A stretch of DNA of 64,000 nucleotides, from positions 24,348 through 88,347 of IMG/VR virus record IMGVR_UViG_3300044827_000008. One strand, given 5' to 3'. Of the stretch, positions 7,744 to 62,423 are shown piece after piece. The notes under the pieces were generated by a model that was not told where the DNA came from, did not search any database, and saw only the letters and a list, made by a program, of their open reading frames with translations. The DNA comes from a virus. Numbering within the stretch: position 1 is the first letter of the stretch; each line of letters begins with the position of its first letter. The translations under genes were made by a program, and so were the position numbers.

Positions 7744-7817
7744 TTGCGGACGCCGGGACTCGAACCCGGAACCTTGAGGATATGAGCCTCCCGCTCTGCC
7801 GATTGAGCTACGCCGCA
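7744..7817 (-). tRNA. tRNA with CAU anticodon (elongator Met or Ile2) and a bulged acceptor stem
   Basis: TGCGGCG/CG-T-CCGCA acceptor, D arm GCTC-AATCGGCA-GAGC, loop CTCATAT, T arm CCGGG-TTCGAGT-CCCGG; followed by CTA rather than CCA. Confidence 0.85.
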
Positions 7818-23293: not shown

Positions 23294-23830
23294 TCATGGT
23301 GCCATTGCCTCAGCATAAGTGGGGCCGAGTTGGGTGCGGATATGTTCGCGAGCGACACTGAGACGACTGGCGACTGTCCGCTCGGGGATGCCGAGTGCTC
23401 GACTGATGTCCCGATTCGAGTGGCCGTGGTAGTAGCGCAGGATCAGAGCCTCCGACTGTTTCGGCGGCAAGGATGCGATCGCAGCCCCAATGTCAGAAGC
23501 ATCAACGCAATCCTGTGGGTCGATCCCGATCTTTGGTGGTCCGAGTCGCTTGACAACCTCATCCACGGTACGAATCCTTTGTTTGCGGAACCAAGAGATG
23601 GCATTGTTCTTGGCGATGAACATGACCCACGCCTCTGCTGGTGCGATCGGCTCCCACGTGGCCCACTTTCGAAATGCCTGAAGGAAAGCATCCTGGGTGC
23701 AGTCTTCAGCCGCATCAGCATCACCGATGATGCTTTTGATTGTCAGAAAAATCTTGCGGTAGCTCGTTTGATAAAGGCGAGCAAAGTCCTCAACATTACC
23801 GGCTCGATACGGGGCCTCGGACTGGATCAT
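23294..23830 (-). CDS. ECF-type RNA polymerase sigma factor
   Basis: Region 2 AEDCTQDAFLQAF..W...AWVMFIAKN; region 4 LPPKQSEALILRYYHG.S.RDIS.ALGIPERTVASRL. Confidence 0.92.
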   Translation of the reverse strand: MIQSEAPYRAGNVEDFARLYQTSYRKIFLTIKSIIGDADAAEDCTQDAFLQAFRKWATWEPIAPAEAWVMFIAKNNAISWFRKQRIRTVDEVVKRLGPPKIGIDPQDCVDASDIGAAIASLPPKQSEALILRYYHGHSNRDISRALGIPERTVASRLSVAREHIRTQLGPTYAEAMAP

Positions 23831-24107: not shown

Positions 24108-24539
24108 TCACCGCCGTGTCCTCGCGATAAGGCCACCGCCATTTGCACGTTCGGTGGGTAGATCAAACACGCGGGAGAGCGAGCCGCCCACGGGGACTCC
24201 TGTATTCGGCGTGACTTGCACGACGCGGTCATCCCATAGTTCGATCATCGCGTAATCCTTCGCGCTCGTGACGGGAAGTGCGATGCCGATAGTGTTGATC
24301 AACCAGTCGGTCGCAGCGACGCGAAACTTGGCGGCGTCGAGGTCGCGTCCGACCGTCCCATTAGAGGACGCGCGAGCGGTAACGATCTTGACGCGGTATC
24401 CCAGCGCGAGCATGTTCTTTACGCGGTCCACCATAGCCGGTATCGGCTCACCGATGAGGTCGGCTTCCGTCCACTCGGTGTAGTGCGCGAGCGTGGCGTC
24501 GAGGTCTACGCCGATCCATCCATTGTCTTTCTGTGCCAT
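24108..24539 (-). CDS. HAD-family phosphatase (polynucleotide 3'-phosphatase-like)
   Basis: WIGVDLDATL, VTAR, K...LWDDR; start MAQKDNG overlaps the upstream TGA. Confidence 0.85.
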   Translation of the reverse strand: MAQKDNGWIGVDLDATLAHYTEWTEADLIGEPIPAMVDRVKNMLALGYRVKIVTARASSNGTVGRDLDAAKFRVAATDWLINTIGIALPVTSAKDYAMIELWDDRVVQVTPNTGVPVGGSLSRVFDLPTERANGGGLIARTRR

Positions 24540-24750
24540 CAAAGTGTTCCGTGCGAAATCTGGATCACTTGCAATGCCGTGCGAATTTCCTGAATCGCCT
24601 CTGTACGGGTGACGTAGTTGTCCTGATCCATGATGAATGTCAGCACGGCTTCGAGGTCGCCCATCTTGTGGAGGTCGGGCATCGTGCTCCCCATCTCGGG
24701 GTCTTCGCACGTGATGAGATGGCAGATCGACACTATGAGTTCGTCCTCCA

Positions 24751-25200
24751 TCAGAACGGCACCCCATCGTAGCTGAGGTCGAGGAGTAGCTCGACGCCCC
24801 CGTCCTCAAGCCGAATCTGGAGTGCGTTGTGGAGGCCCGCAGCCTCGCCCGGCTCGCATCGAGTCAGGCCCAGTGTTGTGGTCAGGCTCGCAAGCTCGTA
24901 CAACTTGGCGTACGTGGTGCGGTCGAGGTCGTACGTCTTCTGCCACGCGCGCCGCTCGCCCTTGATGTTCTCGATGCGCTTGAGGGCGGCGTCGATCTTC
25001 TCCTGCGGCTTAGGGTCGAGGTCGCGCAGGCCCGCGAGGTAGCGGCCCCCTTTGTCGAGGCGCTCCTGAAACAGCTTGAGGATTGCGTCCCCGCCCTTCA
25101 CCTTTTTGCCGTCCGGCCCGTCAATGGTTGCGGAATCGAAGGTCGTTTGCGAGTTCCGTTTCAACTCACTCAGTTCGACCATCGTGATCAGTTTGCTCAT
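24751..25200 (-). CDS. Hypothetical helical protein
   Basis: ORF coupled to the RNA ligase stop. Confidence 0.6.
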   Translation of the reverse strand: MSKLITMVELSELKRNSQTTFDSATIDGPDGKKVKGGDAILKLFQERLDKGGRYLAGLRDLDPKPQEKIDAALKRIENIKGERRAWQKTYDLDRTTYAKLYELASLTTTLGLTRCEPGEAAGLHNALQIRLEDGGVELLLDLSYDGVPF

Positions 25201-26030
25201 ATCCCCTCCTCGATGATCGTTGAGACTGCCTGTCCCAGCGTCATCTCGGTGTGCCCGCGCTTCGATGACCTATCGAATCCTGGCTTGGCCGGAAACGCTT
25301 CCGCAAGCTTCGCTCGTTCGGTCCGCTTCTCCAAGTTCTCGAAGTCTTTGATTTTCAACTTCGTGATGATGCGGTTCCCACGTCGATCGTACAGTGGCAC
25401 GCTCGGTGTGCCGACGATGCCTTCCATCACGGCCACGCTCACCTGAGTGTTGTTCTCTGCGACGATCGACGTAAGCGTCTCGACGCCCGCCCAGTCGTGG
25501 TTCCTGATCTGCCCAATCGCCTCGTTGAGAGAACAGGTTGCGACGATCGGCACCACATCCATGCCCATCTTCCCGGCCACCTCGACCACGTCCTCGCGCT
25601 TCAGCCACCATCGTCCAATGCGAATGTCGAAGACGATGAAGCCCACGTCGGTACGGTAGCGTCCACCGTTCTGAATCTTCGGCCCGTAACCCTCGCCGTA
25701 GATGGTCGCGTCCTGCGTGCCATCATCGTCAAGTCCGAAGGCATCGACCCAGCGGTGCGGATCGTTGTACTGCGCAAGCGCGTACATCAAGTGGCCCGGC
25801 ATCTGCGCATCCTTTGTGCGCCCGCCTGCCGCAACTTTCTCGCCGTTGAAGTGGAGCCGCACGTTCGTGCCGTCCACCTTTTCCGTCCACGTCCACAACG
25901 AGTCCTCCAGATACTTGAACTCGTCGGTCGAGAAAATGTCGGGCATGATGACACCACCGTTCGCCATGTCGCGCTTAAATGCCCCATTTATTTTGGGATA
26001 TTCGGGGCCAAACACTGAGTTGTCTTCCAT
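25197..26030 (-). CDS. ATP-dependent RNA ligase (Rnl2-like)
   Basis: YPKI, EKVDGTN (motif I), IYGEGYG, FIVFDI, EGIV, TKLK. Confidence 0.9.
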   Translation of the reverse strand: MEDNSVFGPEYPKINGAFKRDMANGGVIMPDIFSTDEFKYLEDSLWTWTEKVDGTNVRLHFNGEKVAAGGRTKDAQMPGHLMYALAQYNDPHRWVDAFGLDDDGTQDATIYGEGYGPKIQNGGRYRTDVGFIVFDIRIGRWWLKREDVVEVAGKMGMDVVPIVATCSLNEAIGQIRNHDWAGVETLTSIVAENNTQVSVAVMEGIVGTPSVPLYDRRGNRIITKLKIKDFENLEKRTERAKLAEAFPAKPGFDRSSKRGHTEMTLGQAVSTIIEEGI

Positions 26031-26458
26031 CACACCCTCCTCCGGTTGTGTCGTTGTTCGAGTGGAGTTGCCCATCGACAGTTCTCCAACTCGTAATTGC
26101 CGTCAGGATTTTTGCGGTCGATTGTCGTGCCATCAGGATGTTCGCCCATGTCTGCAAGAAAGTTCTCGAAGACATGCCATCGGTCGCACACACGGATGCC
26201 GCGCCCGCCGTAGTCGGTATAACTCTTATGGCGCGGATATTCGCAGCGTTGCAGCATGGACATCCATGTTATGTAGGTCGGTGTGAGGTGCCCGCCACGC
26301 GAAGCACCGTGCGTCACCGAATGTTCGTTGCGATACTTATCCCCGGTGACATCGGGTCGTTTCCATCCTCTCTTGGCATTGGGGCGGGTCATACCGAGAT
26401 GTGCTTGCCTCATTCTTTCACGCGTCTCGGGCGAGTGGTGACTACCAAGGGGCATCAT
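26030..26458 (-). CDS. Free-standing HNH homing endonuclease with N-terminal NUMOD3-like motif
   Basis: HSPETRERMRQAHLG; TY.TW.SMLQRC...YGGRGIRVCDRW..FENFLADMG..TIDR.NPDGNY..ENCRWAT..EQ..N. Confidence 0.88.
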   Translation of the reverse strand: MMPLGSHHSPETRERMRQAHLGMTRPNAKRGWKRPDVTGDKYRNEHSVTHGASRGGHLTPTYITWMSMLQRCEYPRHKSYTDYGGRGIRVCDRWHVFENFLADMGEHPDGTTIDRKNPDGNYELENCRWATPLEQRHNRRRV

Positions 26459-26835
26459 GTGAATAGCCTCCCCTGATTTTGTTCTGGCATTCCCGTAAGA
26501 CTTGGACGGAAAAGCGGACCCGAATACAGGATGCGACTGCGGATGCCGAGTAGCTGACCGACGAGGCCGACGCGCTGAAACTCCCCCGAATTCCAGGCCC
26601 TCGTCCAGTCGGCCAGCTTCGCGAATTCCGTCGCCGCTTGAACCGCCTGCTTGCGTGTGGGGAACGACCCGCACACGCGGAAGCCCGATGGAATGTGCAC
26701 GATATTCCAATCGTTTGTCTCGTCTCCCGTCATTGTCACGGCACGGTGTACGGCGAGGCCCGGCGCGATCGAGTAGCCGGGAAGCTCGCGCTCGGTGCCG
26801 TCGATGTATGAGGCCACGATGGTGGTCTTAAGCAT
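26455..26835 (-). CDS. Hypothetical protein
   Basis: ORF, PGLAVHR...WNIVHIPSG. Confidence 0.6.
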   Translation of the reverse strand: MLKTTIVASYIDGTERELPGYSIAPGLAVHRAVTMTGDETNDWNIVHIPSGFRVCGSFPTRKQAVQAATEFAKLADWTRAWNSGEFQRVGLVGQLLGIRSRILYSGPLFRPSLTGMPEQNQGRLFT

Positions 26836-30357: not shown

Positions 30358-30597
30358 TTACCTCCCGGCCTTCAAGTATGTGATCACGTCTGCCGCGTCG
30401 AGGTACAGGCCCGCAAGGACCTTGTTCATCGTGCGTGCGCTGACCCGCTTCCCGGCAAGGAACCGACGCAACGTACGCCCGCTGACTCCGCACTGCGCCG
30501 CCACAGCGGCCCGCGTCAACCCCCAGTGCTCGACGGCGAGCACCACGCGATCGGTATTGACGCGGACCGCACGTCCGCCAAGTAGGTACTCCGTCAT
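30358..30597 (-). CDS. XRE/Cro-like HTH regulator
   Basis: LTRAAVAAQCGVSGRTLRRFLAGK.VS..TMNKV. Confidence 0.8.
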   Translation of the reverse strand: MTEYLLGGRAVRVNTDRVVLAVEHWGLTRAAVAAQCGVSGRTLRRFLAGKRVSARTMNKVLAGLYLDAADVITYLKAGR

Positions 30598-30600
30598 GCT

Positions 30601-31008
30601 TTAGGCAGTCGCGCCTCCAACCGGCTGAACTCCGATCTTGTGCTCGCCCGCGAACTTCGTGACGCTCGCCGTCACGTCCGCCGGGTCGAGTGGCGTGAGG
30701 TTCAGTTCCAAGCTGTCTGCGAGCTTCGTGATCTGTACCGCTGCGACGATCTCGCCGTTGTCGAGGGCGATCTTCCGCGCCATCGAGAGGCTTACGCTCT
30801 GGAGAAAGGCTCCGGCGTCGAAGAGGCTGACGAGCACGTTCTCACCGTCCCTCTCTCGCAGGGGCGCGGTGTCGAGGATGTTGCCGTCCGCGTCAAGCTT
30901 CCACGCTTCGGCCTTCAGCGTGCCCTTATCGATGGTGTTGCCGTCGATCGTGACCTGAAACCGCATCGATACGGCCACCGGTTTCGTCTGCTCCTGCTCG
31001 TCTGTCAT
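30601..31008 (-). CDS. Hypothetical protein, first gene of the leftward unit
   Basis: ORF with GGGGA RBS. Confidence 0.65.
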   Translation of the reverse strand: MTDEQEQTKPVAVSMRFQVTIDGNTIDKGTLKAEAWKLDADGNILDTAPLRERDGENVLVSLFDAGAFLQSVSLSMARKIALDNGEIVAAVQITKLADSLELNLTPLDPADVTASVTKFAGEHKIGVQPVGGATA

Positions 31009-31009
31009 G

Positions 31010-31480
31010 GTTGATCCCCCTGGTGAATTTGCGATGGTTCTCCACCGCTGTCCTCCATGGTAGCGGGGGGTAGGGGCGTCACCGGCCTGAAGTTTTCAGG
31101 CGGGTGCGTGGTAAAAACCGGGCTATGCTGGAGGCAGGCGGAACTGACGTGGTGAGGGCTGGCCGTTCGAGTGCGCGGGAAATCTGCGAGCAACACTCTA
31201 GGCCGGAATCCGAAAAGCCATGCTTTCGAGCCTTGAGCGCGGGGGTGGGGCATTTGATAGGTGCCTCGCCTCCGTTGCGCTGGAAATAGGGTGGAGGCCC
31301 TCAAAATGGCTGTTTTTTGCCCCTCGTTCCCCATTTCGGGCATGCCGAAAGACGCCGCGCGAGGTACTTTGGGGCCGCAGATGGCAGCTACTAAAGGTTG
31401 CTTGGCTACGGCCTGAAGATTCTTGCTAAGGGAGGTTAGTTTTGCCCGCCTTCGGGGCATAATATAGGTAGGCAACAAGT
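31010..31480. promoter_or_regulatory. Divergent control region between the leftward replication unit and the rightward early unit
   Basis: No credible ORF; strand switch; TTGCCC...CATAATATAG promoter-like sequence at 31442-31467. Confidence 0.5.
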
Positions 31481-31660
31481 CAATACCGACTCAGCAGGGA
31501 GGGCGAATCCCCCTTAGCTACGAATGTGCCGTTGGGCCGACCCCAGGCACGCCGCGCGACGCGTAGCGACAAGGAGATCGACTGGTACGCATACCGGATA
31601 GCCCAAGCCGAGGCACCGTCACACCGTGCCCACAAACTGAGAAATCAGGAGAATAGAGAT

Positions 31661-31841
31661 GGCCGGGCGCTTCCGCTCGGCCCTCTCGATGGGCGATGGT
31701 CGGGCAGCGACCGACCGCAGTACCCGTGTGAAGGGTCAGCGCGAGTCCGTTCGAGTCGGACAAAGGGCGCAGGGACGCAGGCTGACACACGGCGAAGGAC
31801 AGGCGGGGAGGTGTTCACGACACCCCATCGTCCATCGAGAG
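31661..31841 (+). ncRNA. Structured cassette A (hairpin + 17-bp helix, cargo with T-arm)
   Basis: GGCCGGGCG-CTTC-CGCTCGGCC; CTCTCGATGGGCGATGG (31683-31699) pairs with CCATCGTCCATCGAGAG (31825-31841); GTCCG-TTCGAGT-CGGAC inside. Confidence 0.75.
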
Positions 31842-31870
31842 AAAGGAAGCTATTCGGTACACGAGAGGTT

Positions 31871-31986
31871 GAGGCGTTCCGTGTCGCACGTCGATGCGGC
31901 CCGCCTCCCTCGATCGAGCTTGTAGTCGGCTTCTCCCGAAGAACTGAAGGCCCTTCGGATGCTGGAGCCGACTCGCTCGGTCGGGG
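31871..31986 (+). ncRNA. Structured cassette B
   Basis: GAGGCG...CGCCTC hairpin; CCTCGATCGAGC (31908-31919) pairs with GCTCGGTCGGGG (31975-31986); inner GTCGGCTTC/GGAGCCGAC and CCGAAG/CTTCGG stems. Confidence 0.65.
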
Positions 31987-32084
31987 GTCGTGAACTCACC
32001 CGGTGGCATTGAGGCCGAAGAAATACTAGGCCCCGCGCGGGACAGCACGACTCTCTCAGCCCCATACATATGTAAGGAGAGACG

Positions 32085-32315
32085 ATGCCGAACACCAACT
32101 ACACCGCCGGAACGTTCCGTGTTAAGGCTCGCAGAATGAATTACAGCCTCGACGCATACGAAGAGGTTGAGGGTTTTGTCGAGATCGAGATCGACATCGA
32201 TCGGCTCGTCCGCGACCTCGGGCCTCGCGCGGTTCTGAGTATTGGTGGCCTCGCGCAAGAGGCGGGCGGCGCGATCAGGGTCAAGCGGGTTGCGGACATC
32301 GCGGGGAGTCGGTAG
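32085..32315 (+). CDS. Hypothetical early protein
   Basis: ORF with TAAGGAG RBS. Confidence 0.7.
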   Translation: MPNTNYTAGTFRVKARRMNYSLDAYEEVEGFVEIEIDIDRLVRDLGPRAVLSIGGLAQEAGGAIRVKRVADIAGSR

Positions 32316-32324
32316 GAACGAAGA

Positions 32325-32420
32325 GAGCGGCCCACTTCGGGCCGTTCCCCTCGATGGACGGTCAACGCACGAGTCGCCCTACGGGAGGCGCTGAAGACGT
32401 GCGGCACTGTCCGTCGATGG
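32325..32420 (+). ncRNA. Structured cassette C
   Basis: GAGCGGCCC-ACTTC-GGGCCGTTC; TCGATGGACGGT pairs with ACTGTCCGTCGA; inner GCACG/CGTGC and CGCC/GGCG stems. Confidence 0.75.
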
Positions 32421-32456
32421 TACGTCCGACCGTACATGTGTAAGGGAGAACCGAAC

Positions 32457-32756
32457 ATGGCGTCATACAAGCACTGCAACGATCCGAAGTGCCAGCGCGA
32501 GATCGAGGAGTCGATCTTCAACACGGCGACGGCACACGCGCTCGGATGCAAGTTGCGTCGGTCGCTCGCAGCCAAGGACGCGTTCGCGGCCAAGTCGAAG
32601 CGACAGGAGCGCGGACGTAAGGCAGCCGCAACGCGGGCCGCGCGGAAGCTCGCCAGTCAACCGCTCGCCGTGGACTACGGCACGATGGGCCTTGACGAGG
32701 TCGAGAAGATGTCCGACGCGGAGTACGCAGCCGCACTCATAGAGGAGGGTTCGTGA
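32457..32756 (+). CDS. Hypothetical early protein (Cys/His motif)
   Basis: MASYKHCNDPKC..., AAGGGAG RBS. Confidence 0.7.
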   Translation: MASYKHCNDPKCQREIEESIFNTATAHALGCKLRRSLAAKDAFAAKSKRQERGRKAAATRAARKLASQPLAVDYGTMGLDEVEKMSDAEYAAALIEEGS

Positions 32757-33160
32757 GCCGCAACATCTACCGCGTCAAGACAAAGTACGGCATCGAGGTC
32801 ACTCGTCAGTCGGATCGCCCGTACAAGTTCGTCATCATCTCGTTCGGTCAATCGGAAGCGTTCCTTCGCAGCCGACACGAGGCCAAAGCCAAGTACCTCA
32901 ACGAACTCGCGGCACGCTACCGCATCGCTGAGCGTACCGGCACCGACCCGAAGTACCCGCAGGACGGCGGACGGTTCGTCGCGGAGGACTATCGCAGATG
33001 GGCCGAGGACACCGAGGCCAAGGCCGCGATACCGTTCGTGGCTGAGGAAGCCAAGCTCATGGTGCATGGCTGGTCGATGAGCATGAAGGGTGCGATGGCA
33101 ATGGAGCGGGAGGCGGTGAAGTACCGCTATCTCAACATCGAAGTTCTACCAGTCGCGTGA
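32753..33160 (+). CDS. Hypothetical early protein
   Basis: GTGA overlap, GAGGAGG RBS. Confidence 0.7.
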   Translation: MSRNIYRVKTKYGIEVTRQSDRPYKFVIISFGQSEAFLRSRHEAKAKYLNELAARYRIAERTGTDPKYPQDGGRFVAEDYRRWAEDTEAKAAIPFVAEEAKLMVHGWSMSMKGAMAMEREAVKYRYLNIEVLPVA

Positions 33161-33164
33161 GAGA

Positions 33165-33274
33165 GAGCGGCCCGCGCCGCTCCTCTCGATGGGCGAATCA
33201 TCCAGACCGTCGCAAGGCGGCAGGGTACAGCGAGCCAACAGCAGGCCCACGCACGATGATTCGCCCGTCGAGAG
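33165..33274 (+). ncRNA. Structured cassette D (19-bp helix)
   Basis: GAGCGGC-CCGC-GCCGCTC; CTCTCGATGGGCGAATCAT (33183-33201) pairs with ATGATTCGCCCGTCGAGAG (33256-33274). Confidence 0.8.
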
Positions 33275-33304
33275 TCCAGTCAACCAGATAGAAGAGGAGA
33301 GTCG

Positions 33305-33511
33305 ATGGCAGACTACGCGTTCATCAAGGTTCGGAAGATCGGAGAGAAGCGGTTCAACTTTCTCCGACCGGATGGCGGCGAGACTCACCTCCGCGTTCAC
33401 GCGGCGATGGTGCCCGTCGAGAAGCTCGTGTCCCGCCTTGCGATGGTGCGCAAGGACAACCCCGGCTTTGAGTTCAAGGCCACTACTAAGGGAGGCTTCG
33501 TTGGCAGCTAA
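33305..33511 (+). CDS. Hypothetical early protein
   Basis: ORF with GAGGAG RBS. Confidence 0.7.
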   Translation: MADYAFIKVRKIGEKRFNFLRPDGGETHLRVHAAMVPVEKLVSRLAMVRKDNPGFEFKATTKGGFVGS

Positions 33512-33878
33512 AAACCTACGCGGCAAGACGGTCGGCGGCTACCCGGTCGATAACTCGCAGGCATACGAGGTGTGGCAGGCGGGCACGTGGACGTGGAACG
33601 TGCTCAAGCACAACCAGTCCACCGAAGCGGAGTTGAAGAACCCGTTCGCGATCGTGTGCTGCAACGTCGTCACTCCGATGTGTCCCGACGGGGAGATCGG
33701 AGACACCTACCTCTACGAGATCATGCACAGCGCGCGGATGATCGCGTTCCGCGACGTGACGGACGGCGTGCTCGACAAGCAGCAGACTCTCGTCGGCGTC
33801 GCGCCGGACGGGATACGCGGCGACAAGGTCGATTGCTCGGCGCTTTACACGAAGCTCCAGGCAGCACTTCGGGCGTAA
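33501..33878 (+). CDS. Hypothetical early protein (WTW.VLK...E.GDTY..EI; DUF2958-like)
   Basis: TTG start after GGAGG; family call by motif only. Confidence 0.65.
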   Translation: MAAKNLRGKTVGGYPVDNSQAYEVWQAGTWTWNVLKHNQSTEAELKNPFAIVCCNVVTPMCPDGEIGDTYLYEIMHSARMIAFRDVTDGVLDKQQTLVGVAPDGIRGDKVDCSALYTKLQAALRA

Positions 33879-33882
33879 GCGA

Positions 33883-34080
33883 GAGCGGCCCCGTGGCCGC
33901 TCCGCTCGCGAGGAGGCCCCGGCAGGGGATGTAACGCAGCATTGTTCGGGGGCACCCGGCGTGGCTGCGGTGAAAGGGTCGGCCCGGCGGGAACGGTGAG
34001 AGGCTGCGCGCAAGCCCAGTGCCGTCACCCGAGGCGTTTGCGAGCGGGTTCGAGGCCCGCACCGCCCCTCCTCGCGAGCG
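33883..34080 (+). ncRNA. Structured cassette E (perfect 14-bp helix, about 150-nt cargo ending in a T-arm)
   Basis: GAGCGGCC-CCGT-GGCCGCTC; CGCTCGCGAGGAGG (33903-33916) pairs with CCTCCTCGCGAGCG (34067-34080); GCGGG-TTCGAGG-CCCGC at 34044-34060. Confidence 0.8.
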
Positions 34081-34116
34081 TTCGGTTTCCCGTCCACTTG
34101 AAAGAGGAGAGCGCCC

Positions 34117-34401
34117 ATGCTTGATGTCTCGCGGTTCGTGTCCATCGAAATCCCGATCGCACCCGACTGGGAGGAACGGGTGCGTGGCAGTCAGGCCGTG
34201 CTCGGGTACTTCAAGTACCCGGAGGGCGTCGGCCTGAACGGCTGGTACATCGACTTCGATCTCGACTCGCTGCCCCGCTACTTCGGCCCGTACGGCACTG
34301 CCGTCGAGGCCACGGAGAAGGCAGAGTCACTCGGCATGACCGTCCGTGTCAACCCCGCCCGCCTGTACATCGACGAGCGGTTCGAGGAGGACGGCACCTA
34401 G
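34117..34401 (+). CDS. Hypothetical early protein
   Basis: ORF with AAGAGGAG RBS. Confidence 0.7.
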   Translation: MLDVSRFVSIEIPIAPDWEERVRGSQAVLGYFKYPEGVGLNGWYIDFDLDSLPRYFGPYGTAVEATEKAESLGMTVRVNPARLYIDERFEEDGT

Positions 34402-34536
34402 CGTCCGACAGCGGCCCGGTTTATATCACGCTGGATATATTCCGGGTCGGATGGAACCCGCGCCCGGTCTGAAGTCCGGGGCACCGAAAAGTTCAGGCCG
34501 ATGGCCCTGCTAATAGGGCTTACAATGGAGATGCAA

Positions 34537-36054
34537 ATGGAGAATATCGAGGGTCAAGACGTGGCGGAAGGCCCCGCCGAATACCGCATCCCGTCGTCCC
34601 GCTGGCCCACCTTCCAAGAGAAGTTGGGTAAGCTCGCGAAGCGCGCGAACAAGCTCGGTGCCGGAACGATCGGGTTCGAGATCGTCCGTGTCGAGCACAT
34701 GAAATTGATCCGGTTCGACGCCATGTCGTTCCTGCCGGACGAGCCTCCCGCCGACCGGCTCGTGCCGATCGACGCGAAGGTCGAGCGCGCGTTCGTCGTC
34801 GGCTACGAGGACATCAACGTCGTGATCGTCACGGGCGACCGCCCCAAGCTCAACGGCTGGCGGTTCGTCGGCACCCTCCAGTCCCTCAAGGACGACGAGG
34901 GCGTCATCATCAACATCCTGCGAAACATCCCCGGCGAGACAATCCCCGCGAAGTACCGTGACGCGGAGCAGTGGTGCGACCAGTGCAAGACCCGCCGGTT
35001 CCGCATCGACACCTACATCGTCATGCACGACGACGGTCGGACGGCGCAAGTCGGCTCCGACTGCCTGAAGGACTTCACCGGGCACGCATCGCCCGACACC
35101 ATCGCCCGCTTCTGCGAGTACCTCATCGAGCTTGACGGCATGATAAGCGACGGCGAGCGCGGCGGGTTCGGTGGTGGTGAGGCCGACTCACTCTCGACCC
35201 TATGGATCGTGACCCTGGCATCCGCGCGTGTACGGGTGAAGGGTTGGATGTCGCGCTCGAAGGCGCGCGAGATCGCGGGCCAGTCCAGCGACTACGAGGC
35301 CCGCAAGGACACTGACCCGACCGTCACCGGCCACCTGCGGACCGTGACGGCTACCGCCGACGCCGTGAGCGACTACCTCGATCGCAAGCTTGGCGACAAG
35401 CGGATGCGCGAGGATGGTGTCGCGATCACGGAGGCCGACTCCCTGGAGGCCGAGGCCGCCATCGAGTGGATTCGGTCGATGGATCGGAACGAGCTACAGC
35501 GCGGCGACAACGACTACCTCTGGAACCTCTACGCGGCGTGCGCCAACGGCAACATGACGTGGCGCATGCTCGGAATCGTCTGCTCCCTCGTCGCCGCCTA
35601 CCAGCGCGCGATGGGCCGCGAGCAGGAGCGCAAGGAACGCGCGTCCAAGTGGGCGAACTCGCAGTTCGTCGGCACACTGAAGACGCGCGAGGTCTTCCGT
35701 CTGAAGCTCACTGCTGAGCCTCGCGGATACACGACGCAGTTCGGCACCTCGTACCTCCACCGTCTTGAGGACGAGGCCGGGAACCAGTTCACCATGTGGG
35801 GTGACCGGTTCACCGTCGAGTCGGGTGAAACCGAAGTGTTGAAGCGATGGGACGCCGCGACGAACGATCTCGTCGAGTACGTCAACCCGGTCTACCGCCC
35901 GTGGGCGGTCGATGAGTGGGTCAACATCAAGGCGACCGTCGTCAAGCACGAAGAGCGTGACGGCATCAAGTCCACGACCATCAACCGCCCGGCACTCGAT
36001 GTGCCGAAGCCCGTCAAGGTTCGCAAGGCCAAGGCGACGGCGGTTCCTGCATGA
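34537..36054 (+). CDS. Large phage protein with CxxC...C Zn site and probable C-terminal OB fold
   Basis: CDQCKTRR.R...VGSDCL; C-terminal SQFVG...T.FG..Y...D..GN...W...IKATV.KH.E.DG.K.T.I.R. Confidence 0.75.
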   Translation: MENIEGQDVAEGPAEYRIPSSRWPTFQEKLGKLAKRANKLGAGTIGFEIVRVEHMKLIRFDAMSFLPDEPPADRLVPIDAKVERAFVVGYEDINVVIVTGDRPKLNGWRFVGTLQSLKDDEGVIINILRNIPGETIPAKYRDAEQWCDQCKTRRFRIDTYIVMHDDGRTAQVGSDCLKDFTGHASPDTIARFCEYLIELDGMISDGERGGFGGGEADSLSTLWIVTLASARVRVKGWMSRSKAREIAGQSSDYEARKDTDPTVTGHLRTVTATADAVSDYLDRKLGDKRMREDGVAITEADSLEAEAAIEWIRSMDRNELQRGDNDYLWNLYAACANGNMTWRMLGIVCSLVAAYQRAMGREQERKERASKWANSQFVGTLKTREVFRLKLTAEPRGYTTQFGTSYLHRLEDEAGNQFTMWGDRFTVESGETEVLKRWDAATNDLVEYVNPVYRPWAVDEWVNIKATVVKHEERDGIKSTTINRPALDVPKPVKVRKAKATAVPA

Positions 36055-38206
36055 AACCAAAGGTTCCTGCCCGATTCGTTTATGAGGGTCAGACCCTACA
36101 CCGTGATGGTCGAGGGTCGGCCCATCGCAGGCCGATGAGTAACAGGGGGTGGCAGCTAGGCCACCCCCAGCGGGGCGGCGCGTTTATTGATCCGGCGGAA
36201 TTGAAAGAGGAGAAGCCGAATGCGTAAGGCGCAAGCCGAGTACATCGCGGACGAGATCGCGCGCGCACTGCACGAAGCGGGCCACGGTGCCCGCCTCGAT
36301 ACGGTCGCCATCCGCAAGAGTCCATACAAGTGGGTCATCGAGTTTCGTAGACTCACCCCAAGTGGCCTAATCTGGCTGCCGGTCGAAGTTTTCGAGACGA
36401 ACGCCGAGGCGCGGGCCGCTCTCGTCGTTGCACGTAACATGGCCCGGAAGTAAGGGAGAGAAATGGGCAGCTACTACAACCGACCGTGGAGGGGCTACTT
36501 CGAGGTGCTCGATGGTCCCGACTGGATGCGCTACAACGTCGAACTCGGTTCGGTCGAGCAGGGCCTTGCCCTTGTCACGACTAACCCGATACCCGGCCTC
36601 AAGTGGCGGATCGTCGATGCTGGCGGCAACGTCTACGAGTCAGGGCAATTTACCTCGCATGATCTCGTCGCCAAGTCAGAGGACGGCACCATTCTTTACG
36701 TCGATTTCAAGAACGCGCCGATCGACCCCGTCATCGCAGCGCGACAGGAGGCGTTCTACAGCGCCACATTCGCGGACGCAGTACGCAAGCAGGCGGATGG
36801 ACTGCGCGATCTCCTCGACTACGCGACCGATGTCGAGAGGGGCCGACCTCATATCAGCGTCAGCGAACGTAGGCGCTTGTTGGAGGAGGCGCTACGTGGC
36901 TGAGACACCGCTCATGATGTGCGGTCACGCCGCCAACTCCACCATCGGTGCCAGTCCAGCCTGTGTAATCTGCTGGCCGAAGCCCGAGTCGTTGCTCGTC
37001 GCTGTCACCGTCCCTGACCTCGCGGGCCGTCTCGCAATCTGCGGGTGTGGTAACACGGAGCCGTCCCGCGCCGGTCTAGCGTTCTTCGAGTACCTTGGCC
37101 CTGGTTCGCGGCGGGCCGTCACGCAGTGTAAGCACTGCCGCTACAGTGTCGAGGCCCATGATCCCGCCGTCATGGCGCGGAACAAGGCCCTCACGTGCAC
37201 GAACTTCGAGCCGCACGGTGGGTTCGAGTCCGACTCGTTCTACTGCGGTCACGCCGGATGGGATTAGTCAACCACAATCACAAGGGAGAAGTAACCGATG
37301 TCTGACAGTGGCCCACTTCTATTCGATCGGACAGAGGAGCTTTATCAGAAGCTCGATGAGTCGCGGGAAGGCGAGGTGCGCATGCTTCTCTTCGAATTCG
37401 ACTTCGTCCTTTCGCCCGCCTCCACTCGCCGCAAGGTGTACGGACCAGCGGACCTACTCGTCAAGCGTTGGCCGGACGGCGGCATCAACATGCACGTCGC
37501 AATCACCGGCATTGCTCCCGAGAAGCCGCTTCCAAGTGGCCCACCGTTCGTTGACGAGATCATGCAACTCCTCGAAGAGGACCGCTGATGAAACCCAAGC
37601 TACCGGACAAGTGTCCCGACTGCGGTGCGACTCGTGGGTTAACCATGATCCGTACCGTCTCGCGCGTCTACGCCGAGTGGAACTGCGGGCGTTGTGGGTC
37701 CTCGTGGCGCTCGGACGCGGGCACCGGCAGGCTCATCGCTCGCCTCAACACTGCGGAGCACCTCGAAGGCGGGGTGAAGGCATGATGAACAGCAAGCCCA
37801 AGCCCCGGACGAAGGTTCGGATTGAGATGCGAGCGCAGGAACGTGCTCGCGCTGTGCGTGGTAGAAAGTAGTGGTGCCGACACTCAAATCCATCCTCGAA
37901 GCACAGACGAGCGACGAGGTCGTGCTCGCGCGCGACTTCAAAGCGGTCCGCATCGAACGAACCGAACTCGGTGATGTCGAGTGGCCGGTCATCGTCCAGG
38001 CGGTACTCGATCGCACCGCCGTCGTGTACCCGGCGGGCCGCGTTGATGCCAAGCGCGTGGTTCGGCTCGACATGATCATGGTCGAGGAGGCCGACATCAA
38101 GTGGGTGCCCCGGAACCCGCGCGAGCTACAGCAACTCCGCGCCCGGCAAGTCGGTCAACGAGCGGGCCGCTTGTTGCAGGGTGTGGTAAAAACCGAAGAG
38201 TCCTAG
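36051..38206 (+). other. Small early genes (36051-36227, 36220-36453, 36463-36903, Cys-rich 36896-37267, 37298-37588, Zn-ribbon 37588-37785, 37871-38206)
   Basis: Coupled plus-strand ORFs with GGAG RBSs. Confidence 0.65.
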
Positions 38207-38211
38207 CACGA

Positions 38212-38285
38212 GCGGGCGTAGCACAGTGGTAGTGCACTGGCTTGCCATGTCAGGTACGCGGGTTCGATTCCCGCCACCCGCTCCA
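38212..38285 (+). tRNA. tRNA-Gly(GCC)
   Basis: GCGGGCG/CACCCGC, U73, CCA; anticodon loop TTGCCAT; T-loop TTCGATT. Confidence 0.93.
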
Positions 38286-38291
38286 GCCCAC

Positions 38292-38366
38292 GGGCCGTTG
38301 GTCTATCGGCATGATGCCTTCCTGTCGAGGAGGAGATGAGGGGTTCGACTCCCCTACGGCCCGCCA
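38292..38366 (+). tRNA. tRNA-Asp(GUC)
   Basis: GGGCCGT/ACGGCCC, G73, CCA; anticodon loop CTGTCGA; T-loop TTCGACT. Confidence 0.92.
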
Positions 38367-38377
38367 GCTACAAATCA

Positions 38378-38408
38378 GCCCCGGTCCCGCGAGGGGCCGG
38401 GGCCTTTT
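38378..38408 (+). terminator. Intrinsic terminator ending the early unit
   Basis: GCCCCGGTCCC-GCGA-GGGGCCGGGGC followed by CTTTT. Confidence 0.75.
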
Positions 38409-38421
38409 CCCATTTGGGGCC

Positions 38422-38958
38422 TTATTTAACTGATGCGGGCCAAGGTTGTGGCATTATCGAAAGGGGCGGATCGTAAACAATCACGCCATCTCGAAGAACT
38501 ATAGCGTAATGATCGAGGAGATGCTCACTTTCTCTTTTGTTGCGCGGAAAGATGGGTCGTCCGGTCGCTGGAGAGAGGTATCCCGTTCGCACTTCAATAC
38601 GAAGCTGACTACCTCCCCTTGGTTGAGCCAAGAGATCACAGCTACTTGCTGGACTGAGGGCACGATAAACCTCGAATCCTCGACGCATAAGATCGGCTGC
38701 AACAACGAGTTCCGAAATCGCACCGATTGTGCCAGTTGAAAGGCCGGATGAAACTGGCAAGTCGTACCTATCAGTGTAGTCCTTGCGAGCGCAAAGATTT
38801 GAGCAGTACCGCTGGTCTTTGCGACGCGCAAGGAAGGTTTTCCCACATTTTGGTCGGGCACACTCTCGCTCAAGATGTAGGTCGTAGATCACACTGAGGG
38901 GTTCGGGACCAATGAGAGGCAATTCTAAGTCCTCAGAGGCCGGTGCAGGGCTTCCCAT
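38422..38958 (-). CDS. Zn-finger + PD-(D/E)XK endonuclease (homing-endonuclease-like)
   Basis: C..PKCGKTF...RYCSNLC; GAISE..V.ADL..RGFEVY...SCDLL...IEVRTG; TAAGAT -10 lies 7 nt upstream of the ATG. Confidence 0.75.
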   Translation of the reverse strand: MGSPAPASEDLELPLIGPEPLSVIYDLHLERECARPKCGKTFLARRKDQRYCSNLCARKDYTDRYDLPVSSGLSTGTIGAISELVVAADLMRRGFEVYRALSPASSCDLLAQPRGGSQLRIEVRTGYLSPATGRPIFPRNKRESEHLLDHYAIVLRDGVIVYDPPLSIMPQPWPASVK

Positions 38959-51736: not shown

Positions 51737-53353
51737 TTATCCGATGTTGGCGTTGCCGTTCGTCACCTTGATTGAGTCCTGACGCTTCGCATCGGTGTCA
51801 AAGACTCCGGTCAGACTGAGGTCGTACGCCACGTTCGTCTCATGTGCGGCCCACTTGATGTCGCCTTCGAGCGCACCGTAGAAGTCGAACTCGATGGACT
51901 TGGCGCGGAAGATGACGGACGCATCGGGCACATCGGTGCGAGGCACGAAGGGCACGATGGCGACGGTGAAGTCACCTGCATCCACGTCGAAGGGCTTGAC
52001 GGTGACGATCTGGCCGTGGTCCCCGAGCACAAGCGCGAGGCCGTCATCCACTGGAAAGTCCACGGTAAGTCCGGCAGACACCGACAACCACGTGTACGGC
52101 GGCACGATGTAGATTCGAGCCTCGTCGAGCCAATCTCCAATGGCGGGCACGATCGAAGCAAAGCTGATCGAGGTGCCACCCACGTGGAGTGGGGCTGATA
52201 GGACGAGAGTATCGAAGGTTGGTCCCGCACCGATGGTGATCCTCACTGATGCACCCGATGGAACCTCGAAGGTTGCGGGGTCGATGGCCGCCGTAGTGAT
52301 CGCGCCACCCGAGTGGAGCTTCACACCTGCGAGGTCCGCAACGGTTGTACTAGTCTTGCCGATCGCCTGGAGTGTTCCGAATGTAGTGGCGTCGATCTGC
52401 GAGCCGACTGCCTGGAGGCGGACACGGGACTGGGGGACTCGGAAGTTCGGCTGGTTCGTGTCGATCATGTCCCCGATTTCGAAAAGGTGGGTCGAGTCGT
52501 AGACGCCACCGTTCTCCAGCGGAGAGAGGTCCTCTTCAAGGGTCAGAGCGAGCGCGACTTCGCGTCGGCCACGGCCAATCTTCTGGTAGAAGGGTGCGAA
52601 GTCTCCAAAATACTTGCGCTTGTTCTGGTTCTTGTACTCGGCGGTCGCCTTGACATAGCGAATCGGGATGTAGGTCGTCGCGATCGGATTGTGCGACACA
52701 TCGAAGGGATCGAACTTGTCCACGAAGAGTCGAATCTGCCAGCCGTTCGGAGCCTCGACGGCATGGTCGCCGATGCTGGCTGCAAAGGCGGTGCCGGACT
52801 CGCGGCCCGCTCCACCCTTATCAAATCCGTTGCGACCGACCGGCCACGACTCCTGAGAGAAGCCATTGAGTTCCATCATGATCGGGTCATCAGTGCCCAT
52901 CTCGATCTTGAGCGCGTCACCCTGCGAGTAGGGGAACTGCCACTGGAGCGTCTCGTCACCCCACTCGAACGTACGCGAGCCTAGTGGATTGTCGTGGAGG
53001 TTGTTGGGGCTGCCGCCGTCCGAGCCAGAGGTCGGCGCGATTGCCGGAGTGTAGTCGTAGGTGTAGCCCACGCCTGCGCCACCGAGCGGAGTCACACCAC
53101 CAGCATTGAAGATGTCGAGCCAGTAGGGGAAGTCCTCGAACATGACATCGGACTTGTAGACCCACGTCGCGTCCACGAGCTTGGCGTTACCACGGAAATT
53201 GGAGACGAGGACGCCCCGCTCTTCCATCGCCCATCGACGAGCCTGATCGCGCTTCGGTTCGAAGGTGCCGTACACCTTGCGGTCGGCCAGGACAGCCGTG
53301 CCTGGAATCGCTTCCTTACCGGCCAAAATTTTCCGAAGTGCTAGTTCGCCCAT
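51737..53353 (-). CDS. Major tail (tube) protein with an internal beta-domain insertion
   Basis: ILAGKE..PGTAV N-terminus, C-terminal IKVTN; position after the tail terminator. Confidence 0.8.
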   Translation of the reverse strand: MGELALRKILAGKEAIPGTAVLADRKVYGTFEPKRDQARRWAMEERGVLVSNFRGNAKLVDATWVYKSDVMFEDFPYWLDIFNAGGVTPLGGAGVGYTYDYTPAIAPTSGSDGGSPNNLHDNPLGSRTFEWGDETLQWQFPYSQGDALKIEMGTDDPIMMELNGFSQESWPVGRNGFDKGGAGRESGTAFAASIGDHAVEAPNGWQIRLFVDKFDPFDVSHNPIATTYIPIRYVKATAEYKNQNKRKYFGDFAPFYQKIGRGRREVALALTLEEDLSPLENGGVYDSTHLFEIGDMIDTNQPNFRVPQSRVRLQAVGSQIDATTFGTLQAIGKTSTTVADLAGVKLHSGGAITTAAIDPATFEVPSGASVRITIGAGPTFDTLVLSAPLHVGGTSISFASIVPAIGDWLDEARIYIVPPYTWLSVSAGLTVDFPVDDGLALVLGDHGQIVTVKPFDVDAGDFTVAIVPFVPRTDVPDASVIFRAKSIEFDFYGALEGDIKWAAHETNVAYDLSLTGVFDTDAKRQDSIKVTNGNANIG

Positions 53354-62307: not shown

Positions 62308-62423
62308 TTCCTACAAACGAGATGAGGCGGGACATGGCCCGCCCGTTCACACGGACGAAACGCACGCCCCGCCTCACGAGTCAGCTATTCACCGACTGAG
62401 ACAGTTTGTCTTTACGATTGATG

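Follow-up and report, generated by a model that had tools for sequence, protein, structure and literature searches.

The 64,000-nucleotide window analysed here (bases 24348-88347 of the single 88,347-bp virus record IMGVR_UViG_3300044827_000008, which has direct terminal repeats) contains five non-coding plus-strand elements, A to E, between positions 31661 and 34080. In each of them a GC hairpin abuts a helix of 12-20 bp that closes 44-150 nt of interior RNA. Together with three further copies on a contig from a related phage (L001), they make up one real family, constrained as plus-strand RNA, non-coding and lineage-restricted, and its tRNA ancestry or affinity is demonstrable. On the basis of sequence, the elements may be tRNA-derived punctuation modules on a polycistronic, presumably early, transcript, in which the helix would be cut by host RNases and the hairpin would cap the upstream message; this reading is a tentative one, to which we give not quite an even chance. 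The most economical reading of their origin is that of a processing module descended from a tRNA gene, in which the cap hairpin and the helix were kept and the tRNA body, being dispensable, mostly decayed or was replaced.

An earlier note on this DNA had placed five elements with a hairpin and a closing helix at these coordinates, and RNAfold, a repeat search and shuffling confirmed them. Closing arms were recovered by the repeat search for D (20 nt, 95%), A (17 nt, 94%) and E (14 nt, 100%). In the RNAfold structures of A, B, D and E, hairpin and closing helix adjoin without a spacer; in C a 2-bp step with one C.U mismatch comes between them. Compared with dinucleotide shuffles, whole elements gave z = -4.4 (A), -3.9 (B), -3.5 (C), -5.5 (D) and -2.3 (E). 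A sequence-free scan of the 88-kb genome for a hairpin abutting a long-range helix of 12 or more Watson-Crick pairs returned four matches on the plus strand and none on the minus strand, against a mean of 0.1 in shuffled genomes (30 shuffles, maximum 2). The four matches were A, D, E and a G.U-rich match at 52521-52633; B and C were missed by this strict scan because of a compound hairpin and one mismatch, respectively. Across all eight copies, the closing helix has 12-21 bp and its partner strand lies 43-150 nt downstream. The junction between hairpin and helix is 0 nt in seven of the eight, and seven closing helices are free of bulges, C having one C.U mismatch. Stacked, hairpin and helix amount to 18-31 bp, reaching at least 20 bp in seven copies. 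The scaffolds form direct repeats of about 40 nt, and in the 88-kb genome their conserved motifs are confined to the elements, apart from chance matches with one mismatch. The consensus GC hairpin proposed earlier (GAGCGGCC) held for three of the five window copies and failed for A and B, which have other sequences; the hairpin loops vary among copies.

All eight copies are oriented like the genes of the small-gene block, on its sense strand, and five begin 4-10 nt past a stop codon. As had been described for C, D and E, these follow closely on a stop and shortly precede the next gene: C starts 9 nt after the stop of the gene at 32085-32315, D 4 nt after that of 32753-33160 and E 4 nt after that of 33501-33878, and they end 36, 30 and 36 nt, respectively, before the next start. 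Open reading frames (ORFs) that overlap the elements have negative coding scores in every frame, which, with the shared scaffold, bears out the view of one non-coding family. A coding role was rejected on these scores and on the lack of coding signal throughout 31009-32084. An 88-codon ORF at 31659-31925, with good AGGAG spacing, starts at A and runs into B; its coding score is negative in all frames, and it is probably not a gene.

To gauge the constraint on pairing, the eight copies were aligned with MAFFT and scored on a 20-pair scaffold structure (155 cells). Of these cells, 94.2% were found to be paired, versus 40-56% with the partners slid by 1-3 columns. Double changes occurred in 9 of the 20 pairs, compared with 2.2 in shuffles, none of 500 of which reached 9, so that the compensated helix substitutions reported before were upheld. 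The count is conservative because MAFFT shifts the hairpin of A by one column. Across the aligned copies the closing helix is 99% paired. Counted from the junction, helix position 2 is U-A, C-G, G-C or U.G depending on the copy; five positions of E are re-coded on both sides; and past helix position 13 every copy has its own extension, which is always paired. The imperfections of the scaffold in the eight copies comprise 14 G.U pairs, no A.C and one C.U. This one-sided preference for G.U over A.C points to selection acting on RNA of the plus strand, which has the orientation of the genes, in line with what had been read earlier from the G.U imperfections.

The DNA of this phage occurs in soil metagenome runs. 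Contigs from three soil DNA runs had no joint in or at the elements, gave only fragments in two of the runs, and are uninformative on expression or excision. Homologues of P0001, the protein encoded after the six small genes that the elements punctuate, were found in metagenomes at 49-73% identity; among them, P0004-P0010 are 49-58% identical, some of them encoded on contigs of 48-66 kb. The metagenome scan yielded L001 as the sole close relative, a 5.9-kb contig whose P0001 homologue is 73% identical and which carries the copies L1a, L1b and L1c. Three of the seven genes called on L001 are common to the 88-kb genome, with protein identities of 66%, 46% and 73%; the other four have no homologue in it. 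Two of the three shared genes stand in swapped order, and the three L001 copies are homologues with reshuffled neighbours in a related phage, which counts for the earlier note's reading. In this one comparison, elements lie at some, not all, of the breakpoints. Tandem copies without an intervening gene occur in both phages (A-B and L1a-L1b). Scaffold identity between the two phages is 59-91% (mean 74%) and that of the shared genes 66-80% in nucleotides, and the notion of a scaffold far better conserved than the genes was dropped. Within the L1b interior (L001 1000-1065), a direct repeat of ~24 nt is present in two copies ~40 nt apart.

Searches for further relatives gave no DNA match in phage records, and the relatives of P0001 that tblastn retrieved there were all at or below 31% identity. 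A related-locus search of the viral contig collection with P0001, with its family (A1) and with the gW1 family returned nothing, and neither did A1 in genome contigs. Scaffold patterns (three in viral contigs, one in genome contigs) retrieved only chance matches without the architecture. Two look-alikes were rejected: one on a distant relative (L002) is a repeated sigma-70-type promoter, and the other (L003) combines a terminator with a promoter enclosed by an inverted repeat. On L003, which is distant and AT-rich, the stretch at 441-564, ahead of the P0001-homologue gene, has an intrinsic terminator hairpin that abuts a 21-bp inverted repeat with a sigma-70-type promoter between its arms; the outline is similar to that of the elements and the thing itself is different.

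The link to tRNA is clearest in L1c, of all copies the one best preserved. The Rfam tRNA model (RF00005) matched L001 2580-2657 with 34.5 bits (gathering score 29), and this interval consists of the L1c interior and the inner 7 bp of the closing helix, the latter as the acceptor stem. The RNA has a discriminator A and has D and T arms in place, and CCA is not encoded; it is tRNA-like, not a tRNA. A model built from the phage's own eight tRNAs rediscovered L1c (21.1 bits, E 6e-5) and in the window elements matched only the T arms of E (14.4 bits, E 0.003) and A (7.3 bits, E 0.38). The closing helix of the family is thus composed of an outer leader-trailer pairing of 8 bp and an inner acceptor stem of 7 bp, the latter seen in L1c. 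The T(-1)/GGRCG acceptor junction, which corresponds to the conserved 5' strand of the earlier note, is kept in six of the eight copies. No such frame surrounds the ordinary tRNA genes of the phage.

T-arm hairpins are present in three of the eight interiors (A, E and L1c) and absent from the other five, and only in L1c does the T arm lie directly 5' of the acceptor 3' strand. Strictly defined (5-bp stem, TTCRANN loop, G-C closing pair), T arms number 11 in the genome, where 0.82 are expected: seven in tRNAs found by ARAGORN, one at 7745-7816, one beside a tRNA-Gly/Asp pair, and two in A and E. The phage has at least eight tRNAs (seven by ARAGORN, eight by Rfam). The tRNA at 7745-7816 (minus strand) has 52.7 bits in Rfam, was missed by default ARAGORN and was called as tRNA-Met (CAT) at a lowered threshold. 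The strict T arm at 37962 (37938-38026, minus strand), just upstream of the tRNA-Gly/Asp pair, was called by ARAGORN as tRNA-Ile (GAT) at a lowered threshold only and is not among the gathering-level Rfam matches; it may be a tRNA relic. Inside A-E, Rfam at E<=10 on 30500-35500 found nothing, which agrees with the expectation that these elements are uncatalogued there. At gathering scores on the window and L001, Rfam returned only tRNAs, and default ARAGORN placed no tRNA in the elements. Cloverleaves drawn by ARAGORN around the T arms of A (-ps90) and E (-ps80) were poor, appeared alongside obvious false calls and were not counted.

The interiors present a different picture. The earlier note held that each folds into stems, which is literally true and trivial: seven of the eight fold no better than dinucleotide shuffles (z +0.08 to -1.3), and only B (z -3.3) does, its interior merely continuing the stem. 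No two of the eight resemble each other, as had been stated. Beyond the T arm they show no likeness to the phage's own tRNAs. A blastn-short search matched them neither to the phage genome nor to any of the loci retrieved, and interiors as antisense or spacer-like copies were rejected on that basis. Five interiors have no recognisable RNA feature, and only one matches an RNA family. The single comparable position lies after homologous genes in the two phages, where the interiors of E (150 nt) and L1a (64 nt) share nothing. The claim of a different structured RNA cargo in each element is not supported, seven interiors having no excess folding.

Table 1. Features of the element-bearing region of the window and of contig L001
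Feature	Position	Strand	Details
Element A	31661..31841	+	Hairpin 31661-31682; closing helix 31683-31699/31825-31841, 17 bp, 1 G.U; interior 125 nt
Element B (diverged)	31871..31986	+	Compound hairpin 31871-31907; helix 31908-31919/31975-31986, 12 bp, 2 G.U; interior 55 nt
Element C	32325..32420	+	Hairpin 32325-32347; helix 32348-32362/32407-32420, 14 bp and one C.U mismatch, 2 G.U; interior 44 nt
Element D	33165..33274	+	Hairpin 33165-33182; helix 33183-33202/33255-33274, 20 bp, 1 G.U; interior 52 nt
Element E	33883..34080	+	Hairpin 33883-33902; re-coded helix 33903-33916/34067-34080, 14 bp, perfect; interior 150 nt
Element L1a	L001 784-912		Same hairpin and 5' arm; interior 64 nt
Element L1b	L001 958-1087		Same hairpin and 5' arm
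Element L1c	L001 2553-2664		Same hairpin and 5' arm
Canonical T-arm hairpin in A	31745..31761	+	5-bp stem, 7-nt TTCGAGT loop, G53-C61; 63 nt from 3' arm
Canonical T-arm hairpin in E	34044..34060	+	6 nt before 3' arm; 15/17 bases as in phage tRNA-Gly T arm
Plus-strand block	~31.6-38.4 kb	+	Contains the elements; minus-strand blocks on both sides
Six small genes punctuated by elements	32085-32315, 32457-32756, 32753-33160, 33305-33511, 33501-33878, 34117-34401 (span 32085..34401)	+	
Non-coding stretch between divergent gene blocks	31009..32084 (~1.07 kb)	+	No coding signal; presumed leader with A and B

The six small genes have coding scores of +0.53 to +0.72, a clear signal, and were assigned to no Pfam family and to nearly no PHROG. 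They are followed by the gene of P0001 (517 aa, phrog_2319), whose nearest named homologue, from Tunturi_5, is annotated as RecT-like. Elsewhere the phage genome encodes a capsid-protease fusion, an NrS-1-type primase-polymerase, an RNA ligase, an ECF-type sigma factor, RuvC and a DnaQ-like exonuclease. The ECF-type sigma factor is accompanied by a weak PNK-like protein, an Rnl2-like RNA ligase and an HNH endonuclease nearby (23294-23830 and 24108-26710, both minus strand), and the PNK-like/Rnl2-like/HNH cluster looks like an RNA-repair module. TROVE, integrase and RNase III domains were not found in the phage genome, and a resolvase-like stretch appeared only below threshold; PF00589 (tyrosine recombinase) had no match in the 88-kb genome, whereas control genomes match.

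Several spacers of the genome have features of their own. The one before the P0001 gene contains an AT-rich palindrome (34421-34441) within a GC-clamped hairpin (34404-34479), which gave a weak, sub-threshold match to Twister-P5 (19.4 bits, E 1.1), and the equivalent 390-nt spacer of L001 contains a different palindrome with 12-nt arms (2780-2804); these palindromes may be operator or promoter regions. Two types of 5' untranslated region (UTR) are repeated in the block. The first, an ACAT-N-TGTAAGG-R-AGA palindrome with a Shine-Dalgarno sequence, stands at 32062-32082 and 32428-32450, ahead of the genes at 32085 and 32457, and the second, GAA-R-AGGAGAG, at 33289-33301 and 34098-34110, ahead of those at 33305 and 34117. 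The ribosome-site regions have thus been duplicated together with the cassettes. At 62322-62397 on the minus strand, in the spacer upstream of the capsid-protease gene, a separate hairpin abuts a 15-bp long-range helix; its sequence is unrelated to those of A-E.

How might the elements act as punctuation? From the sequence features described above, we infer transcription of the block as one unit, cleavage at the elements, the enzymes concerned, protection of the message and a role in recombination. Host structure-specific endoribonucleases would cut at the closing helix: RNase III could act on the stacked rod of hairpin plus helix, about two helical turns long, and RNase P and RNase Z could act where a tRNA-like body persists. 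The stacked length is at least 20 bp in seven of the eight copies, and the idealised Escherichia coli RNase III substrate has 22 bp (PMC3867540). A cut at the helix would separate the cistrons, and the GC hairpin (6-10 bp), left within a few nucleotides of the new 3' end, would guard the message upstream of it against 3' exonucleases. The CUCUC tail, once freed, could pair back onto a purine run just upstream of the hairpin. Such a refold, in which the hairpin grows by pairing of the 5' purine flank with the start of the 5' arm, is possible in all eight copies with a gain of -4.4 to -11.5 kcal/mol, and E alters its flank (AGCG for AGAG) along with its arm. Most excised interiors would be by-products. 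The scaffolds probably double as recombination points, given that gene order differs there between the two phages.

Several observations weigh against this scheme. A single transcript through the block and its cleavage are assumptions. The closing helix alone reaches 20 bp in only two of the eight copies, and a T7-type RNase III site is one irregular hairpin and involves no long-range helix. For RNase P, it is unfavourable that leader and trailer are paired and that U(-1) pairs with A73. No 3' cap is needed at A, B and L1b, because none of them follows a gene. The refold compares weakly with shuffled flanks, the fraction of which that is as good being 0.05-0.07 in four copies and 0.18-0.77 in the other four. 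The tRNA model is passed by one of the eight copies and by none of the five in the window, and even in L1c the anticodon region has 18 nt in place of 15 and no 5-bp stem, and default ARAGORN rejects it. The 14 G.U pairs are not 14 independent events, several being common to copies, and the independent number is nearer seven. Furthermore, the family is known from two genomes only, between which scaffold identity (by its mean) is no higher than that of the shared genes.

The strongest rival takes the interiors as the product and the scaffold as a pre-tRNA-like maturation frame that would release small RNAs early (tRNA mimics, T-loop decoys or helpers directed against tRNA-directed defences), which might be sealed by the Rnl2-like ligase. 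It owes this place to the tandem gene-less copies and to the tRNA-centred gene set, and we nevertheless consider it unlikely. The L1c interior is tRNA-like and T arms occur in A, E and L1c, the gene-less tandems (A-B, L1a-L1b) and the copies in the leader would suit RNA genes better than mRNA caps, the phage combines at least eight tRNAs with the ligase and its weak PNK-like neighbour, and the 0-nt junction in seven of the eight copies brings about the geometry of a nick. This is set against interiors of which seven fold no better than shuffles and no two are alike, which are completely different after homologous genes (E and L1a), and five of which contain no recognisable RNA feature, while L1c itself has no proper anticodon arm; the ligase is ~6 kb away, on the other strand and without any link to the elements. 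The earlier proposal that the helix frames an RNA to be released gains some support from L1c, where the helix is the acceptor stem, and from the T arms of A and E; structured cargo is not general in the family. A broader variant, in which the pre-tRNA fold would be a general mark recognised by tRNA-maturation enzymes (RNase P and RNase Z, possibly after RNase III) that cut the early message and free a changing set of tRNA-like or T-loop RNAs against tRNA-directed defences, some circularised by the Rnl2-like ligase, is a long shot. Sealing into circles would be conceivable because the two ends of the module meet as a nick in the stacked duplex.

A role at the level of DNA, with the scaffolds as linkers for homologous or site-specific recombination of small-gene cassettes (PeSL- or attC-like) and the RNA fold as a side effect, is quite improbable. 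Gene content and order around the elements do differ between the window and L001, a gene for a RecT-like annealing protein (P0001) adjoins the block, the scaffolds offer direct repeats of ~40 nt, and a precedent exists in the PeSLs (PMC2839356, PMC4122927). However, the helix extensions are always paired and E is re-coded on both sides at five positions, none of which homology needs, and the 14:0 asymmetry of G.U to A.C on the sense strand would not follow. The phage has no tyrosine integrase, the resolvase-like stretch being sub-threshold, the bulged bases of attC sites are absent, and the plus strand has no promoter-like or terminator-like site. The attC-like shuffling handle put forward as an alternative in the earlier note has the same weaknesses: no recombinase was found for it, and the asymmetry is left unexplained.

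Control in cis by an uncut RNA seems doubtful to much the same degree. The elements would then act on transcription or translation as an antitermination RNA (put-like or boxB-boxA-like), as a Rho shield for untranslated spacers, or as a bridge from stop codon to ribosome-binding site. A folded module does set the upstream stop 4-10 nt before and the next start ~30-36 nt after one junction, untranslated spacers of 110-200 nt are fully structured, and the order of a hairpin and then a conserved strand recalls the boxB-boxA-boxC leaders of rRNA operons (PMC10250234). Yet the variable loops offer no boxB-like loop to recognise, and the tRNA-like copy is left unexplained. An operon requires an antitermination site only once, and here there would be five in 2.4 kb. 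A last and very unlikely reading makes the elements functionless relics, duplicates of a tRNA gene cassette that are now decaying. A single tRNA-like copy, the remains of T arms in two more, and interiors that are otherwise unrelated and unstructured would suit such relics; decay, however, would break helices, and the closing helix pairs at 99% and has compensatory changes, G.U accounts for every transition-type imperfection, and copies have been kept in two phages whose common genes have a protein identity of only 46-73%.

Other candidates were rejected as well. A plain terminator or promoter was dismissed for want of a plus-strand site in 30500-38600, the hairpins being followed by CUCUCG and not by a U run. 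A Y RNA (YrlA) was dismissed because A-E have no Rfam match and the genome has no TROVE domain. A trans-acting partner for the conserved arm was also dismissed, its motif occurring elsewhere only as chance matches with one mismatch.

What distinguishes the elements from known systems? Punctuation by tRNA-derived modules, the preferred reading, resembles two of them in its proposed action. Conserved RNase III sites lie between the early genes of Bacillus phage SP82, and in T7 the upstream message is left with a 3'-terminal hairpin once RNase III has cut. The T7 early precursor, of ~7000 nt, has five RNase III sites (PMC3867540). The elements are like these in being related, repeated, structured and placed between cistrons, the position being shown for C, D and E and the single early transcript being assumed. 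T7 sites, however, are single irregular hairpins of about 60 nt, whereas the elements are bipartite, with a separate cap hairpin and a long-range helix closing 43-150 nt; in addition, one element copy is tRNA-like, and cleavage at the elements is only predicted. In mitochondrial tRNA punctuation, tRNAs within longer transcripts act as processing signals that define mRNA ends. Plant mitochondrial t-elements (PMC1920247) and this punctuation share with the elements the presence of tRNAs or degenerate tRNA-like structures in longer transcripts. The organellar systems are cut by RNase P and RNase Z and have no cap hairpin or leader-trailer extension, whereas here one of eight copies passes the tRNA model.

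In location the elements resemble the PeSLs of T4-type phages, each a sigma-70 promoter with a terminator stem-loop (PMC2839356, PMC4122927). Both are small repeated intergenic cassettes among small early genes, non-essential ones in the case of the PeSLs. PeSLs lie where related phages differ by insertion, deletion and shuffling, as the elements may do, given their place at some though not all of the breakpoints with L001. Unlike PeSLs, the elements are constrained in RNA pairing and have no promoter-like or terminator-like site on the plus strand; none was found in 30500-38600, the promoter type of the host not being identified. Integron attC sites are folded single-stranded DNA with extrahelical bases and need IntI. 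The elements share with them imperfect inverted repeats, conserved ends, a variable centre and a place directly after cassette ORFs, and differ in having no bulged bases, in the G.U asymmetry of the sense strand and in a phage without an integrase. As in the rRNA leader-trailer helix with boxB-boxA-boxC (PMC10250234), a hairpin precedes the 5' strand of a long-range helix that encloses RNA, and the rRNA helix is a known RNase III target; it encloses 16S rRNA once per operon, with boxA, whereas no boxA-like motif is established in the elements. The elements would work most like the RNase III signals of T7 and organellar tRNA punctuation or t-elements and sit like PeSLs, and they belong to none of these. 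A limited search of the open-access literature found no described family of this build.

Phage early genes separated by repeated structured RNAs (T7, SP82) and repeated cassettes at shuffling boundaries (PeSLs) are already known. What is new is the build, with a cap hairpin stacked on a long-range helix that is, in one copy, the acceptor and leader-trailer stem of a tRNA-like RNA. Were cleavage true, the elements would be a counterpart in a bacterial virus of organellar tRNA punctuation and would show a tRNA gene worn down to its bare processing signal, and synthetic operons could use the module as a compact, portable means of cutting and stabilising their messages. The elements are also a concrete marker with which to locate cassette boundaries in soil phages that are uncultivated and whose early genes lack known relatives.

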